Source: a virus (lineage: Duplodnaviria > Heunggongvirae > Uroviricota > Caudoviricetes). From it: a DNA stretch of 15,704 nucleotides. Shown piece after piece: positions 1 through 15,704 of this stretch (positions within the stretch are counted from its first letter, which is position 1; each line of letters begins with the position of its first letter). The position numbers were made by a program, and so were the translations under genes. The stretch lies in IMG/VR virus record IMGVR_UViG_2703718817_000007; one strand, 5' to 3'. Under the pieces are notes generated by a model, which was given only the letters and a program-made list of their open reading frames with translations, did no database searches and was not told the origin of the DNA.

Positions 1-156
1 ATGAGGGACACCCCCGCGAACCATAAACGCGGTAAAAACCCGGTGTGCATCGTTTTTGATTATTCCCGCACACTCACGCAGAAGGAATTCCCCGTCGGGC
101 TACGGTCATGGTTAATGCGGGAATACGGCGACGATACAGCGCAGCTAAAAGGGTAA
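1..156 (+). CDS. Short ORF (51 codons) at the window edge; either a small gene or the 3' end of a gene starting outside the window
   Basis: ATG at 1 to TAA at 154-156, uninterrupted; protein-like composition (MRDTPANHKRGKNPVCIVFDYSRTLTQKEFPVGLRSWLMREYGDDTAQLKG). Not in the ORF track, which appears to list only ORFs of about 60 aa or more. No family recognised. Confidence 0.2.
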   Translation: MRDTPANHKRGKNPVCIVFDYSRTLTQKEFPVGLRSWLMREYGDDTAQLKG

Positions 157-324
157 TGGACAGATAGAGCGGTTTATTTCATTCCACAGGATTCTGAGTG
201 CCCCCCCCTCCTCCAATAGGCTGAGCATCCACCTATATAGTTTTAATTTTCATCAATCCATTTAACTATCGTTTAATTGTTGTCACATAGGATTCTGCCG
301 TTTTTAACAATGCAGGATAATAAG

Positions 325-618
325 ATGAAAAAAATGTTGTTTTCTGCCGCTCTGGCAATGCTTATTACAGGATGTGCTCAACAGACGTTTACTGTTGGAA
401 ACAAACCGACAGCAGTAACACCAAAGGAAACCATCACCCATCATTTCTTCGTTTCGGGAATTGGACAGGAGAAAACTGTTGATGCAGCCAAAATTTGTGG
501 CGGCGCAGAAAATGTTGTTAAAACAGAAACCCAGCAAACATTCGTAAATGGATTTCTCGGTTTTATTACTTTAGGCATTTATACTCCGCTGGAAGCGCGT
601 GTGTATTGCTCACAATAA
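325..618 (+). CDS. bor: Bor outer-membrane lipoprotein (serum-resistance lipoprotein of lambdoid phages), 97 aa
   Basis: ORF track 277..618 is the TTG-extended form; internal ATG at 325 follows AGGA at 313-316. N-terminal lipoprotein signal MKKMLFSAALAMLITGC (lipobox ITGC). Sequence agrees closely with lambda Bor / DLP12 BorD as recalled (QQTFTV..KETITHHFFVSGIGQ..ICGGAENVVKTETQQTF). Convergent with the lysis genes, as in lambda. Confidence 0.9.
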   Translation: MKKMLFSAALAMLITGCAQQTFTVGNKPTAVTPKETITHHFFVSGIGQEKTVDAAKICGGAENVVKTETQQTFVNGFLGFITLGIYTPLEARVYCSQ

Positions 619-625
619 TTGCATG

Positions 626-649
626 AGTTGCCCATCGATATGGGCAGCT
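626..649. terminator. GC-rich hairpin between convergent bor and the Rz remnant; possible weak bidirectional terminator
   Basis: Stem 626-635 pairs with 640-649 (core gcccat/atgggc), loop cgat; lies 8 nt after the bor stop. Flanking U-runs are poor on both strands. Confidence 0.35.
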
Positions 650-882
650 CTATCTGCACTGCTCATTAATATACTTCTGGGTTCCTTCCAGTTGTTTTTG
701 CATAGTGATCAGCCTCTCTCTGAGGGTGAAATAATCCCGTTCAGCGGTAACAGTTCTCTGGCATTTTTGTCGCGCTGGGCTTTGTAGGTAATGGCGTTAT
801 CACGGTAATGATTAACAGCCCATGACAGGCAGACGATGATGCAGATAACCAGAGCGGAGATAATCGCGGTTACTCTGTTCAT
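650..882 (-). pseudogene. Rz: Rz/Rz1 spanin remnant: Rz 5' end fused by internal deletion to the Rz1 reading frame; Rz 3' end retained out of frame
   Basis: Minus-strand ATG at 880-882 overlaps the endolysin stop (ATGA). The product [44 protein letters not shown] matches lambda Rz residues 1-44 as recalled, then continues [13 protein letters not shown], which is the recalled C-terminus of Rz1 (stop 709-711). One frame over, 650-745 encodes ..[31 protein letters not shown], the recalled Rz C-terminus. The ORF-track entry 709..894 is the GTG-extended form. Confidence 0.75.
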
Positions 883-1376
883 TGCTGACCCCACAAACAG
901 ATTTCACGCTCAATCTCACGACGAGTCATGAGACCTTTCCATTGCTTACCGCCAGCATATGTCCAGCGACGTAGCTGATCACATGCGCCTTTGATATCGC
1001 CCTGGTTTATTTTGCGAAGAAGCGTCGATGTTCTGAAATTGCCAGCACCCACGTTGTAAACGAATGAGTAAAGAGCGCCGCGCGTTGTTTCCGGTATATC
1101 GACTTTGATGTACGGGTTAATTTGTCTGGCGACAGTGGCAAGGTCTTTATTCAAGAGTGCTTTGCATTCTGCTTTGGTATACGTTTTACCGAGCATGATG
1201 TCTTTTCCTGTATGCCCGTGACATACAGTCCATACACCAACAATATCTTTGTATGGTATGTAGCTGACACCCTCCAGACCATCGTTACCACTTGAGCCAG
1301 TGATTAACACTGATGCTATAGCAATTGCTCCGCCACCAATAGCAGCAGCAACGGCTTTTCGTAATGATGGAGGCAT
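879..1376 (-). CDS. R: SAR endolysin (phage 21 R / DLP12 RrrD-type lysozyme), 165 aa
   Basis: ORF track 879..1376. N-terminal signal-anchor-release segment rich in Gly/Ala ([26 protein letters not shown]) followed by a lysozyme catalytic region ([13 protein letters not shown]). ATG at 1374-1376 overlaps the holin TAA (TAATG). Length matches RrrD (165 aa) as recalled. Confidence 0.9.
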
Positions 1377-1591
1377 TATTCACCTCTCGCAGCCTTGCGC
1401 TTATCTTCTTTAATCTTGAAATAAAGGTTTGTCAGGTACGTCAGCAAGCCAAATACCAGGCTACCCAGCACTCCAATTGCCGCCCACTGTGAGGGCGTGA
1501 CTTTATCTAGCAGCTGTAAAAACCAGTATCCGGCACTACCTGCTGAGGTGCCATAGGCGACACCCGTTGTTAACTTATCCATGGATTTCAT
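1376..1591 (-). CDS. S: Class II pinholin (S21 / EssD-like), 71 aa, with dual-start motif
   Basis: ORF track 1376..1591. MKSMDK.. N-terminus gives Met1/Met4 dual starts typical of S21 antiholin/holin; two hydrophobic segments; C-terminus [22 protein letters not shown] upstream of the ATG at 1589-1591. Confidence 0.9.
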
Positions 1592-1719: not shown

Positions 1720-1753
1720 CAAAAAATGGAAAAACCCGCTCGACGGCGGGTTT
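1720..1753 (-). terminator. Intrinsic terminator on the minus strand between the porin upstream region and the holin gene
   Basis: 8-bp stem aaacccgc (1732-1739) / gcgggttt (1746-1753), loop 1740-1745; on the minus strand the stem is followed by uuccauuuuuu (reverse complement of 1721-1731). Lies in the path of the Q-dependent late transcript. Confidence 0.5.
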
Positions 1754-2180
1754 AAGCTGTGTGACGAAGTAACCACTCTTAACAGCATAACCAATTTTTT
1801 ACGTACGTAAACTACTAAATGATATTTGTGAGAATGCCACCGAGTGTTCAAAACACCACCACAAATACATAAGAAAACTTCAACAAATAACCAATGAATA
1901 ATTTCCGATGTTATTTTTAGTTTGTTTAAATTAAGCTAAAGAATTATAGATCTCTTATAAATAAGTGCCATTAATATAAATTAGCTAATAGATTTATTTT
2001 CGTTCAAACAAGAGCCATGAATAGGATTAGATAGAAAAGGTTTAGATAAAAATAGAGATCTACTTCACAAATTAAATGAGAAACTAAAACTTACATCTTG
2101 AAATAATCGCATTGATTAGATGAATATTTATCGCGCAGTGACATCATTTTTTAATAATAGTTCAAAAAAAAGGGCGTACA

Positions 2181-3263
2181 ATGAAAAAATTAACAGTGGC
2201 AATTTCTGCTGTAGCTGCATCAGTACTGATGGCGATGTCTGCTCAGGCAGCTGAAATTTATAATAAAGACAGTAACAAGCTGGATCTATACGGGAAAGTT
2301 AATGCCAAGCACTACTTCTCCTCTAATGATGCAGATGATGGTGATACTACTTATGCCCGTCTTGGCTTCAAAGGTGAAACCCAAATCAACGATCAACTGA
2401 CTGGTTTCGGTCAGTGGGAATATGAATTCAAAGGCAACCGTGCTGAATCTCAAGGTTCTTCCAAAGACAAAACCCGTCTTGCATTTGCAGGCCTGAAATT
2501 TGGTGATTACGGCTCAATCGATTACGGCCGTAACTACGGTGTAGCATACGACATCGGTGCGTGGACTGACGTCCTGCCAGAATTCGGTGGTGATACCTGG
2601 ACCCAAACAGATGTGTTCATGACTGGTCGCACTACTGGTGTTGCAACTTATCGTAACAACGACTTCTTTGGTCTGGTCGATGGCCTGAACTTTGCTGCTC
2701 AGTATCAGGGTAAAAATGACCGCACTGACGTAACTGAAGCCAATGGTGATGGTTTCGGTTTCTCCACTACTTATGAGTATGAAGGATTCGGCGTGGGTGC
2801 AACCTATGCTAAATCAGATCGCACTGACGGTCAGGTCGCCTATGGTAAGAGCAAATTCAATGCCTCCGGCAAAAATGCGGAAGTATGGGCTGCAGGCCTG
2901 AAATATGATGCGAACAATATCTATCTGGCTACCACATATTCTGAAACTCAGAATATGACCGTTTTTGGTAATAACCATATTGCAAACAAAGCACAAAACT
3001 TTGAAGCAGTAGCACAATATCAGTTTGACTTCGGTCTGCGTCCATCTGTTGCTTACCTTCAGTCAAAAGGTAAAGACCTTGGTGTTCATGGTGACCGAGA
3101 CTTAGTCAAGTATGTCGATGTCGGTGCTACTTACTACTTTAATAAAAACATGTCCACTTTTGTTGATTACAAAATCAACTTAATTGACGATAGTAAGTTT
3201 ACCAAAACAGCTGGTATTGATACCGACGACATCGTCGCTGTAGGTCTGGTTTATCAGTTCTAA
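2181..3263 (+). CDS. nmpC: Outer-membrane general porin of the OmpC/OmpF family (NmpC / phage PA-2 Lc-like), intact, 360 aa
   Basis: ORF track 2181..3263. Signal peptide [23 protein letters not shown]|AEIYNK; porin hallmarks ([15 protein letters not shown].., Gly/Tyr-rich beta strands, C-terminal ..VAVGLVYQF). Sits between Q and the lysis genes in the opposite orientation, as nmpC does in DLP12. Preceded by a roughly 400-bp AT-rich region (1780-2180). Confidence 0.9.
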
Positions 3264-3270
3264 TCTGACT

Positions 3271-3311
3271 TACGAAAAAGATATGTTGCGGGAGGCTTTG
3301 CCTCCGCAACA
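3271..3311 (-). terminator. Candidate tR'-like intrinsic terminator for the short pR' transcript (minus strand)
   Basis: GC-rich hairpin tgttgcgggagg (3284-3295) / cctccgcaaca (3301-3311) with one bulge; on the minus strand it is followed by uaucuuuuucg (reverse complement of 3271-3283). No U-run on the plus strand. Confidence 0.45.
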
Positions 3312-3451
3312 TATAAGTGGAGCCCTCAAGCCACTTCCTTTAGAAGCACTACCTTGCTTCTTACTATATAAACCTTCTGTTATATATTACCCTTTATTTT
3401 GGGGGCGTTTCCACGCCCCATTTTTAATAACTTTTAGTAAACAATTGCATA
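3312..3451 (-). promoter_or_regulatory. Region expected to hold the late promoter pR' and the Q-utilisation (qut) site; exact -35/-10 not resolved
   Basis: Lies immediately downstream of the Q stop (3452) and upstream of the tR'-like hairpin, the arrangement known from lambda and 82. Several imperfect sigma70-like hexamers (e.g. ttgata..., tatagt on the minus strand) but none unambiguous. Confidence 0.3.
3402..3426 (+). terminator. Plus-strand intrinsic terminator, likely for the porin transcript
   Basis: Stem ggggcg (3402-3407) / cgcccc (3414-3419), loop tttcca, followed by atttttaat on the plus strand. Confidence 0.45.
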
Positions 3452-3835
3452 TCAATTAGAATTATTAGCAACGATATCCATATCTAACCGGATATCTAAT
3501 GCCATTAACATCCCTTCAATTATGCCCTCAGCCTTCTGTAACCTTTTCCCGATATAACCATCCGAGCAGCAATGCTTACTTGCCAGTGACATGAATGTCA
3601 TACCACATACATAATAATCTACTAATAAATCGTGTAAATCGCTGTTGTTCTTTTTCAGACGGGCCATGCACCCGCAAATGATCATCGCGTCATCGTCACA
3701 ACATTGCGGGCGAGATTTTACTTTTGAAGGAATTAATCCCTTAAAACCGGCGGCAATGGACGACCAGGTCACATCTTCATGATTATTAGCCGCCCACGCT
3801 CCCCAACGTTCAAGAACCATCTGAATATCACGCAT
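3452..3835 (-). CDS. Q: Late-gene antiterminator Q (phage 82 / DLP12 QuuD family), 127 aa
   Basis: ORF track 3452..3850 is the TTG-extended form; ATG at 3833-3835 follows GGAG. Product starts [24 protein letters not shown].. with Cys-rich zinc-binding core ([17 protein letters not shown]); length equals QuuD as recalled. Confidence 0.85.
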
Positions 3836-3852
3836 TAACTTTCTCCACAAAA

Positions 3853-4848
3853 TCAGGCCAGCACACCAATCGCCAGTGCGCGATCGATAAAACGAAATAT
3901 CAGCTCCAGCTGGGAGCCATACTTCTCTTCAAATGCCACGGTATCCGCATGCAGCTCGTCGTGATGCTTTCTGCACAAAGGCAACACAAAAAGGTCATGC
4001 GCTTTTGTACCCATTCCCCCCTGACCGTGGCCTATCAGGTGGTGGGGATCATCAGCAGGTTTTCCACAACATGCGCACGGCTGCGTCTTAACCCAGCGCG
4101 TGTACTTTTCATTAACCCAGCGGTGACGTTTTGGGCGTAACATAAAAGACTCCGGCGACTCCGGATCCACTTTCAGCGCCAGCACCTTTTTCGCCTTATC
4201 CTGGATGATGCTGGTGGCAGGAACCGAAGGCACAAGGTCACTTTCCCGGGTAACAGACGGCACAACAGGCTTCGGTAATCTCAGTGCCTTACGGGCTGCA
4301 CTTTCCGGTAAGGCATCCGCCAGATCATTACGAATCAGCCACCAGCACAGTTCCGGCATTGTCACAACATGACTGTCATCAAAACCGAGATCCCGACGCA
4401 CAACAGACAACACCCAGCGGGCACAGTTATCCGTTGCCATTGATTCCAGCCGTTCCGTGAACTGATCGCGCAGCTGGTTATCGCAGTGCCAGCACAGACG
4501 GATTGCGCCCGGAGCGTGTCGCATTGTTGTCATGTTCTCGCTGTGCCAGTCGGAATGAGGCCACTGGCAGCCTTTTTCACGAAGTAACCAGCTTTCAAGA
4601 CATTCCACGCCACCAGCACGACGGATCACTGCCTCATTGCGGAACACGGCCCGAACGGCAGGATCATCCGCCAGCGGTTGTGATGCCGCCGGAACGGCAC
4701 CACTGGCGAAAGATGAATAACGTTCCGGCTCAGGCTCCAGCAGGACACGCCCCTGCATAAACAAGGGCATCAGCTCTGAACCTGGTCTGAACAATACGAT
4801 CCCCATACGCGGGGCAATTTCAGGGGTCAGTAGTGCTCTCACGGTCAC
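3853..4848 (-). CDS. Phage protein with C-terminal Cys/His-rich HNH-like motif (DUF968-like by recollection); function unknown
   Basis: ORF track 3853..4848 (GTG start overlapping the upstream stop; an alternative ATG at the RMGIVLF codon exists). C-terminus [43 protein letters not shown] has paired Cys and His-His motifs. Family name is from memory, unverified. Confidence 0.5.
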
Positions 4849-14314: not shown

Positions 14315-14685
14315 TGGAGCCATACAGCCTCACACTCGATGAGGCCTGTCAGTTTCTTAAGATATCCAGACCAACCGCCACCAACTGGATACGAACAGGC
14401 CGCCTACAGGCAACACGTAAAGATCCAACCAAGCCAAAATCTCCTTACCTCACAACACGGCAAGCTTGCATTGCGGCGCTTCAGTCTCCGCTGCATACTG
14501 TCCAGGTGAGCGCGGGTGATGGCATAACAGAGGAAAGAAAATGTCACTCTTCCGCAGAAATGAAATATGGTATGCCTCGTATTCGCTCCCGGGCGGGAAA
14601 CGAATTAAGGAATCTCTTGGCACAAAGGACAAGCGGCAAGCTCAGGAGTTGCACGACAAGCGAAAAGCAGAACTCTGGCGAGTAG
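14314..14685 (+). CDS. xis: Excisionase-like (Xis / AlpA-type HTH) protein; 3' end uncertain
   Basis: ATG at 14314 follows AAGAGGTGA and overlaps the upstream [38 protein letters not shown] parallels the lambda Xis pattern (YLTLQEW..SLETVRRWVRECRI..EYLF) as recalled. The frame has no stop until 14685, overlapping int by 145 nt, unusually long for an Xis. The ORF-track entry 14230..14685 is the GTG-extended form. Confidence 0.5.
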
Positions 14686-15704
14686 AAAAGCTAGGGGATT
14701 TACCTGATGTCACTTTTGAAGAGGCCTGCCTAAGATGGCTTGAGGAAAAAGCTGATAAAAAATCTCTCGATTCAGATAAAAGCCGGATTGAGTTCTGGCT
14801 TGAACATTTTGAGGGTATAAGGCTTAAAGATATCTCGGAGGCAAAGATTTACTCTGCTGTAAGCAGAATGCATAACAGAAAGACGAAAGAAATATGGAAA
14901 CAGAAAGTTCAGGCCGCCATCAGGAAAGGTAAAGAACCGCCTGTTTATGAACCAAAGCCAGTATCAACTCAGACAAAGGCAAAGCATCTTGCCATGATAA
15001 AGGCCATTCTCCGTGCTGCAGAACGCGACTGGAAGTGGCTGGAAAAAGCGCCTGTCATCAAGATACCAGCGGTCAGAAACAAGCGAGTCAGATGGCTGGA
15101 AAAGGAGGAAGCAAAACGCCTTATTGATGAGTGCCCCGAACCACTGAAATCTGTCGTCAAGTTTGCGCTGGCAACTGGTCTGAGAAAGTCGAACATCATA
15201 AATCTGGAATGGCAACAAATCGACATGCAGCGACGAGTTGCCTGGGTGAATCCAGAAGAGAGCAAATCAAACCGCGCCATTGGTGTGGCGCTGAACGATA
15301 CCGCCTGTAAAGTGTTGCGTGATCAAATAGGCAAGCATCACAAATGGGTGTTTGTACATACCAAGGCGGCTAAGCGAGCAGATGGAACATCAACGCCTGC
15401 GGTCAGGAAGATGCGCATCGACAGCAAGACATCATGGCTATCAGCTTGTCGTCGTGCAGGAATTGAAGATTTCCGTTTCCATGACCTCAGACACACCTGG
15501 GCAAGCTGGCTGATCCAGTCAGGCGTCCCATTATCAGTGCTTCAGGAAATGGGCGGATGGGAGTCCATAGAAATGGTTCGTAGGTATGCTCACCTTGCGC
15601 CTAATCATTTGACAGAGCATGCAAGGAAAATAGACGACATTTTTGGTGATAATGTCCCAAATATGTCCCACTGTGGAATTATGGAGGATATAAAGAAGGC
15701 GTAA
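14541..15704 (+). CDS. int: Tyrosine site-specific integrase (DLP12 IntD-like by length and N-terminus), 387 aa
   Basis: ORF track 14541..15704; SD GAGGAAAG; catalytic R..HxxR..Y signature near the C-terminus ([11 protein letters not shown].., ..MVRRYAHL). Stop coincides with the window end, so the attachment site lies outside. Confidence 0.9.

Follow-up and report, generated by a model that had tools for sequence, protein, structure and literature searches.

Where does late transcription begin in a lambdoid prophage that carries a porin gene between its late antiterminator and its lysis genes, and does that transcription cross the porin? The question is raised by a viral stretch of 15,704 nucleotides (IMG/VR record IMGVR_UViG_2703718817_000007), referred to here as the window. 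Its content is part of a lambdoid prophage with the early-right and late genes on the minus strand. Gene calls and a profile search place an integrase at 14541-15704 on the plus strand; an e14/ymf-like immunity region follows in the listed gene order, and the replication and nin-type genes are listed between that region and the antiterminator gene Q. Beyond the porin lie the genes for a P21-type holin S (1376-1591, minus strand; Pfam Phage_holin_2_1, E = 2e-35; annotated essD) and endolysin R (879-1376, minus strand; Pfam Phage_lysozyme, E = 1.3e-45; annotated rrrD). A damaged Rz remnant comes after R, and bor occupies 325-618 on the plus strand. The segment 1500-3900 is 100% identical to several Escherichia coli chromosomes, in which it is annotated as quuD, 'ompC', and essD and the prophage adjoins tRNA-Arg. 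The module aligns with DLP12 of E. coli K-12 at 90-95% DNA identity. These data identify the locus as the stretch from Q to the lysis genes in a lambdoid prophage of the DLP12 family, located at argU.

The porin gene (2181-3263, plus strand) is intact and is of the nmpC/lc (OmpD-like) type. It encodes 360 amino acids with a signal peptide in codons 1-23 (2181-2249) and a C terminus that reads ...YQF, ending in phenylalanine. The Pfam Porin_1 match is full length, with residues 29-360 aligned to positions 1-337 of the 337-position profile (E = 1.9e-151). The NCBIfam OmpC subfamily model scores the protein at 521 bits against a cut-off of 484, and solved OmpC and OmpK36 structure chains are matched end to end. 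The gene is 90% identical to K-12 nmpC at the DNA level, and the protein is 91% identical to Lc of phage PA-2. Residues 1-98 are the same as those of Lc and cover the 23-residue signal peptide annotated in the PA-2 record (J02580). The substitutions and indels that distinguish the two proteins fall in four patches at residues ~181-190, 220-232, 263-268, and 335-345. A full-length 16-strand domain, an export signal, the C-terminal phenylalanine, and the location mark the protein as a phage-borne general porin of the nmpC/lc kind. An earlier note on this DNA had described the porin as complete and K-12 nmpC as disrupted by IS5, and both statements are borne out: the K-12 gene is a pseudogene split by IS5B, an insertion that the record of the 434B hybrid phage places after codon 346.

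The DNA 5' of the porin is AT-rich, as had been noted for about 400 bp upstream of the gene. The G+C content is 27% over 1780-2180, compared to 47.5% for the whole window, and ranges from 24 to 29% across the DNA 5' of the gene. Conservation was determined in an alignment of seven DLP12-type modules, consisting of this window and six relatives (K-12, PA-2, and four isolated phages). The comparison of 1780-2180 with nmpC/lc regulatory regions that the earlier note had called for divides this DNA into two parts. The proximal porin regulatory region (2011-2180, plus strand; 170 bp) is 92-95% identical to the six relatives, and it contains a CRP-type site at 2052-2072 that is annotated in J02580 and invariant among them. 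The distal AT-rich spacer (1815-2010; G+C 24-26%) is the least conserved segment, with 82-89% identity. In K-12, the corresponding promoter PnmpC has been located within the 199 bp that precede the start codon (PMC11677980). It yields a clear 5' RACE product and is the promoter from which the transposase gene of the embedded IS5 is transcribed (PMC11677980). It is described as activated by CRP and repressed by OmpR, IHF, and MprA (PMC11677980). The papers on genomic SELEX and the omega subunit gave no usable promoter positions.

The 3' side of the porin gene is also a conserved element. The 188 bp that separate the porin stop codon from Q have a mean column identity of 96% across the seven modules. 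Within this spacer, the ~170-nt porin 3' UTR (3264-3435, plus strand) is identified by sequence identity as the homologue of the DLP12 small RNA IpeX, being 95% identical to the K-12 nmpC-quuD spacer. Its plus strand is predicted to fold far more stably than shuffled sequence (z = -6.5). An Rfam scan of the whole window at gathering thresholds returned no matches, and Rfam holds no matching IpeX family. On homology, the porin 3' UTR is a published small RNA that had been missed in the earlier note. IpeX of K-12 and PA-2 reportedly lowers OmpC and OmpF expression. A Rho-independent terminator of the porin/IpeX transcript lies at 3402-3425 on the plus strand; its stem (3402-3419, GGGGCGT/ACGCCCC; dG -13.8 kcal/mol) is followed by ATTTTT. 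Porin-sense RNA 3' ends mapped by Term-seq in K-12 (574366/7 and 574476) correspond to window positions ~3435 and ~3327 (PMC7815308 supplements), and a region of Rho-dependent termination antisense to quuD lies just past them (PMC7815308 supplements). The K-12 counterpart of the 3402-3425 terminator is thus a mapped 3' end of porin-sense RNA. The claim that the porin has its own plus-strand terminator stands, but the element is 139 nt from the stop codon and closes a probably functional 3' UTR rather than adjoining the gene.

A second hairpin is embedded in IpeX. Its 15-bp stem at 3284-3314 is retained in all seven modules, and its minus-strand side is followed by CUUUUUCG. On the minus strand, the structure has a dG of -21.9 kcal/mol (z = -6.4) with five U after it, whereas the plus strand has no T run. 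Given these properties, it is a candidate site for ending early-operon transcripts of Q on the minus strand. No Q-sense 3' end after quuD appears in the K-12 Term-seq tables.

The antiterminator gene defines the type of late promoter to be expected. Q (quuD) is annotated at 3452-3835 on the minus strand in RefSeq records of the identical sequence, and the longest open reading frame spans 3452-3850. The protein matches Pfam Phage_antitermQ (PF06530; E = 7.7e-54) and is 81-84% identical to Q of 933W and other Stx phages over residues 5-125. Its family and its closeness to Q933 place it with the Q933/DLP12 type of late control. Because QuuD is this similar to the Stx-phage Q proteins, we searched the window for a promoter of the 933W family. 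A blastn comparison matched 933W Q positions 245-577 to window 3835-3503, and DNA-level homology to 933W Q stops near 3503. The same search matched 933W 664-747, which contains pR', its start region, and the first hairpin, to minus-strand positions 1814-1730 of the window (78% identity across 85 bp, E = 2e-12). Thus, cognate promoter and Q-utilization sequence occur together in a single homologous block. This block is not immediately adjacent to Q. It lies 1689 bp from the last Q-homologous base, compared to a separation of 87 bp in 933W, and the porin cassette is in between. The 1689-bp stretch is made up of a remodelled Q C terminus, IpeX, the porin, and the AT-rich control region. Separation of pR' from Q is the normal state of the DLP12 subgroup.

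The pR' homologue occupies 1777-1814 on the minus strand, with a -35 hexamer TTTACG at 1811-1806, a -10 hexamer TATGCT at 1789-1784, and a predicted start at ~1780-1777. The aligned sequence reads TAGTTTACG-TACGTAAAAAATTGGT-TATGCT-GT-TAAGAGTGGTTAC...AAACCCGCCGTCGAGCGGGTTTTT. In a motif search of the window, TAGTTTACGWWCGTAAAAA (1796-1814) and TAAGAGTGGTTAC (1769-1781) were each found in one copy. In the 933W record, the pR' annotation coincides with the aligned position and overlaps the end of Q; a putative qut site and a hairpin come after it. In the Sakai strain, dRNA-seq and Term-seq mapped transcription from pR' to a start that precedes the tR' 3' end by 258 nt (PMC7547250). This start falls on identical 933W sequence at 698-701, which is 4-7 nt past the annotated -10 and yields the start in the window. 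The pR' block is 97-99% identical in the six relatives, compared to 82-95% for its flanks, and it is the best-conserved part of the porin-S spacer; the distal AT-rich DNA is at 82-89% and the S leader at 84-95%. An initial MAFFT alignment with 933W, ev066, and IdasGreatGrand had pointed to a weak pR'-like site at ~3389, and this candidate was dropped when blastn and the motifs led to 1814-1730. The late promoter homologue therefore lies between the porin regulatory region and S (1811-1777, minus strand), as judged by homology to the promoter mapped in Sakai (PMC7547250), and this placement, which the earlier note had itself named as fatal to its model, leaves unsupported the proposal that Q-modified late transcription runs antisense across the porin.

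The hairpin that follows pR' was also reinterpreted. An 8-bp stem at 1753-1732 followed by TTCCATTTTT forms a hairpin and T run (1721-1753, minus strand) at about +27 to +58 from the predicted start. It is the homologue of the first post-pR' hairpin in 933W, whose stem it retains with a different loop. A minus-strand terminator had been proposed at 1720-1753, and the structure is indeed there; what changes is its role, because it is a pR'-proximal element and not a barrier met after the porin has been crossed. Whether it terminates efficiently is uncertain. Its Sakai homologue is read through to give the 258-nt RNA (PMC7547250), the K-12 Term-seq data contain no Q-sense 3' end at this position and so document neither pR' activity nor termination there, and terminator prediction found no second terminator between 1753-1732 and S. 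Leaky termination at this site would fit the basal roles reported for the DLP12 lysis genes. According to the DLP12 literature cited in PMC7918800, the regulatory region of the lysis operon spans -121 to +650, directly upstream of essD, and the operon is reported to respond to a Q-type antiterminator, to RpoE, and to Hha. With initiation near 1780, position +650 would lie within R, consistent with this description. From homology, pR' and its hairpin would be expected to function in this prophage as they do in its relatives.

Taken together, the data are best explained by a porin cassette that sits between Q and Q's own pR', with a late transcription unit that leaves the porin uncrossed, and we consider this arrangement very probable. 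In this arrangement, a reversed cassette of ~1.65 kb lies between the Q 3' end and pR'. It forms a self-contained unit composed of a CRP-type promoter in AT-rich DNA, the 360-residue porin, and the IpeX 3' UTR, and the terminator at 3402-3425 would halt the porin transcript before Q. The late unit would start past the cassette with pR', followed by the hairpin and T run at 1753-1721, S, R, and the damaged Rz. Q encoded at 3452-3835 would have to act on RNA polymerase that initiates ~1.7 kb away, at pR', and that polymerase would head to lower coordinates, into S and away from the porin. Because the porin is situated upstream of pR', Q-modified transcription would not cross it. PnmpC and pR' point away from each other across a shared AT-rich spacer. 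The anatomy, homology, and conservation come from this analysis; the facts on start sites, PnmpC, IpeX, and RNA 3' ends come from the literature on close homologues.

The porin is a moron in the sense that it has its own promoter, its own terminator, and separability from the phage backbone. The promoter is accepted because it is active in the 93%-identical K-12 region, and separability because 933W has the same Q and pR' blocks without the cassette. The description of the porin as an intact moron that stands on its own between Q and the lysis genes, equipped with a regulatory region and a terminator, is upheld, as is its orientation opposite to Q and S, which are both on the minus strand. Expression of the porin in this lysogen would be expected from these features, and by analogy its display in the outer membrane of lysogens is likely. 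Display of a phage porin by lysogens is established for NmpC and for Lc of PA-2. In PA-2 lysogens, Lc is expressed and OmpC falls.

Placing pR' on the lysis-gene side of the porin leaves one potential source of antisense porin RNA on induction, namely the early right operon reading past Q and the 3314-3284 hairpin. Such read-through is compatible with the porin cassette lying between Q and pR', and we regard it as unlikely. The two genes converge, and the Q transcript would extend at least ~140-170 nt into the IpeX region, covering most of IpeX, before it meets the first minus-strand hairpin with a U tract. In lambda, antiterminated early transcription continues past Q. Against this idea, the hairpin at 3314-3284 is strong and has five U after it, and the annotation of a near-identical ST3 prophage contains no N-like antiterminator. 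When a strong terminator was placed between nmpC and quuD in K-12, a downstream read-out hardly changed, and the authors suggested that intrinsic terminators already act between these genes (PMC11677980). The K-12 Term-seq tables, with no Q-sense 3' ends listed, likewise document no read-through. Even with termination at the hairpin, Q and porin/IpeX are convergent and their 3' ends would overlap by ~140 nt, with Q transcripts extending to 3314-3284 and porin transcripts to 3425-3435. Early-operon RNA made on induction, which would be fully complementary to IpeX, may neutralize IpeX or trigger its cleavage, or IpeX may destabilize Q mRNA in the lysogen; we rate either effect as quite improbable. 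If true, the overlap would tie control of host porins to the lysis-lysogeny state. We found no report of regulation through such an overlap.

It is very unlikely that the intact porin gene is cargo that stays silent, for example through nucleoid proteins bound to the AT-rich upstream DNA, with no lysogen phenotype. The idea draws on the low G+C content of that DNA, on the title of Prilipov 1998, which terms nmpC a 'quiescent' porin gene in E. coli B, and on the effect of Hha on the neighbouring lysis operon reported in the literature cited in PMC7918800. It is opposed by the 5' RACE product of K-12 PnmpC, by the ability of that promoter to drive the embedded IS5 transposase gene, and by the porin-sense RNA 3' ends detected at the IpeX terminator in K-12. 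Conservation also extends over the open reading frame, the signal peptide, the proximal regulatory region, and the 3' UTR.

A lambda-like pR' directly downstream of Q, from which Q-modified polymerase would travel antisense through the porin and override the 1753-1732 terminator before S, can be set aside as extremely improbable: pR' abuts Q in lambda, 933W, and most lambdoid phages, a weak Q-proximal promoter-like string (TGGAAA-18 nt-TAATAT; 8 of 12 matches) can be read with the 3314-3284 hairpin as a pR'/tR' pair, and MAFFT loosely pairs the Q-proximal spacer with 933W pR', but blastn places the true 933W homologue at 1814-1730 and finds no significant similarity to 933W pR' in the Q-proximal spacer, the motif searches show no second copy of pR' beside Q, a promoter scan of the minus strand between Q and the porin (3264-3451) found no promoter-like site, and the spacer is already explained by IpeX and its terminator, where porin-sense RNAs end in K-12.

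The main gain from placing the porin cassette between Q and pR' is correct annotation, as published work already covers the porin and its regulation, IpeX, and the DLP12 lysis operon under Q control. In DLP12-type prophages, the porin cassette displaces the late promoter ~1.7 kb from Q, and models in which pR' abuts Q, the antisense idea included, mis-assign the transcription units. The AT-rich spacer shared by PnmpC and pR' may help explain the reported control of the lysis genes by Hha and RpoE.

The module is common. At a coverage of at least 80%, Q-porin-S is present in 2396 of 5426 complete E. coli genomes (~44%) and in 36 phage records, which include plaque-forming isolates and the 434B hybrid, whose module was acquired from K-12. 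DLP12 (qsr') of K-12 has the same gene order and orientation (quuD, reversed nmpC, essD-rrrD) and the same attachment region, with intD beside tRNA-Arg. The pR' block, the proximal regulatory region, and the IpeX region are common to both prophages. IpeX occupies the same place in K-12, running through the porin 3' UTR to the terminator that precedes quuD, and its sequence there is 95-96% identical. The K-12 porin gene is split, whereas the one in the window is intact. The remainder of the prophage sets it apart from DLP12: its immunity region is e14/ymf-like, and DUF968 and KilA-N genes lie upstream of Q. The lc gene of PA-2 (protein 2; J02580) matches the porin gene of the window in its upstream region, where both annotated CRP-type sites are shared. 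Its product has 365 residues compared to 360 here, and the PA-2 pR' hairpin stem has a C-to-A change.

The Stx phages 933W and Sakai Sp5, the source of StxS RNA, share with the window the -35 TTTACG, the 16-nt spacer, the TAAGAGTGGTTAC start region, and the hairpin stem. They differ in what surrounds the promoter. The 933W pR' lies over the end of Q, with tRNA and stx genes after it, whereas pR' in the window is ~1.7 kb from Q. The mapped Stx-phage tR' is at +258, whereas homology in the window stops after the first hairpin and S begins ~130 nt on. In ev066 and IdasGreatGrand, a single envelope gene of host type, encoding the lipocalin Blc, lies on the opposite strand right after a Q of 86-87% identity. 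No TAAGAGTGGTTAC element was found within 3 mismatches behind Blc in ev066. The site after Q is a common cargo position, because these two phages carry Blc there instead of the porin. The module in the window is the classical arrangement of qsr'/DLP12 nmpC and PA-2 lc, which is already known and adds nothing new in kind.

The DNA homology between the window Q gene and that of phage 933W ends near position 3503, at the edge of the segment that encodes the Q carboxy terminus (3452–3503). The window Q ORF encodes 132 amino acids, its similarity to Q933 ends at residue 125, and its final few residues are unlike those of Q933. Because both the DNA and the protein similarity to Q933 break off before the Q terminus, the sequence comparison indicates that the junction of the porin cassette lies within the end of Q. 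In 933W, the Q933 carboxy terminus overlaps its own pR'. The 1986 record for PA-2 annotates a distal 'CRP binding site' that coincides exactly with window 1757–1777. This segment reads TGTGACGAAGTAACCACTCTT on the plus strand and comprises the first ~20 nucleotides transcribed from the pR' homologue. These bases are conserved with 933W, where they are part of pR' and the putative qut region, and for this reason the sequence match behind the distal CRP assignment may be coincidental.

The pR'-proximal hairpin differs among relatives of the window. PA-2, ev099, and PhiR29_1 carry a C-to-A change in the stem (window 1747; column ~169 of alignment A3), so that it reads AAACCAGC in place of AAACCCGC. 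No compensating change was found in these three sequences in alignment A3, and therefore the hairpin should be weaker in PA-2, ev099, and PhiR29_1.

Positions 3284–3314 within IpeX, the small RNA in the porin 3' UTR, form a highly stable hairpin of 15 bp that contains a single bulge. The hairpin can form on both strands, and its U tract is present on the minus (Q-sense) strand only. One porin-sense RNA 3' end in K-12 maps immediately 3' of this hairpin, at a position equivalent to window ~3327. The hairpin may both terminate the Q transcript and act as a structural or processing element of IpeX. The data of Adams et al. place a Rho-dependent termination region at K-12 574331 on the minus strand, which is porin-sense and barely within quuD, the K-12 Q gene. 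This site corresponds to window ~3470 on the plus strand. Because the region is on the porin-sense strand inside quuD, Rho appears to be a second barrier that halts porin/IpeX read-through into Q.

The 9% difference between the window porin (gene 2181–3263) and PA-2 Lc is clustered in four short patches that include two indels. The patches are located at residues ~181–190, 220–232, 263–268, and 335–345, a distribution that would be expected for surface-exposed loops under diversifying pressure.

Compared to K-12 DLP12 and phage 434B, the spanin genes Rz and Rz1, which overlap, lack ~231 bp, with the deletion point at window 748–751. The Rz remnant (709–894, minus strand) encodes 61 amino acids compared to 153 in K-12, and the greater part of Rz1 is lost. 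The lysis cassette of the window prophage is probably spanin-defective. The left end of the window (1–1300) is mosaic. Positions 35–748, bor included, match the DLP12-derived part of 434B at 99.6% identity. Chromosomes that match the remaining window at 99.6% have different DNA at the left end, including an extra KilA-N gene. A one-piece match to the whole window was found in no complete genome.

Other cargo is found behind related Q genes. The Q genes of phages ev066 and IdasGreatGrand are 86–87% identical to the window Q, and a reverse-oriented lipocalin (Blc) gene occupies the place of the porin directly after Q in ev066 (3550–4074) and IdasGreatGrand (3546–4070). In both phages, a strong terminator-like hairpin separates Q from the Blc gene.
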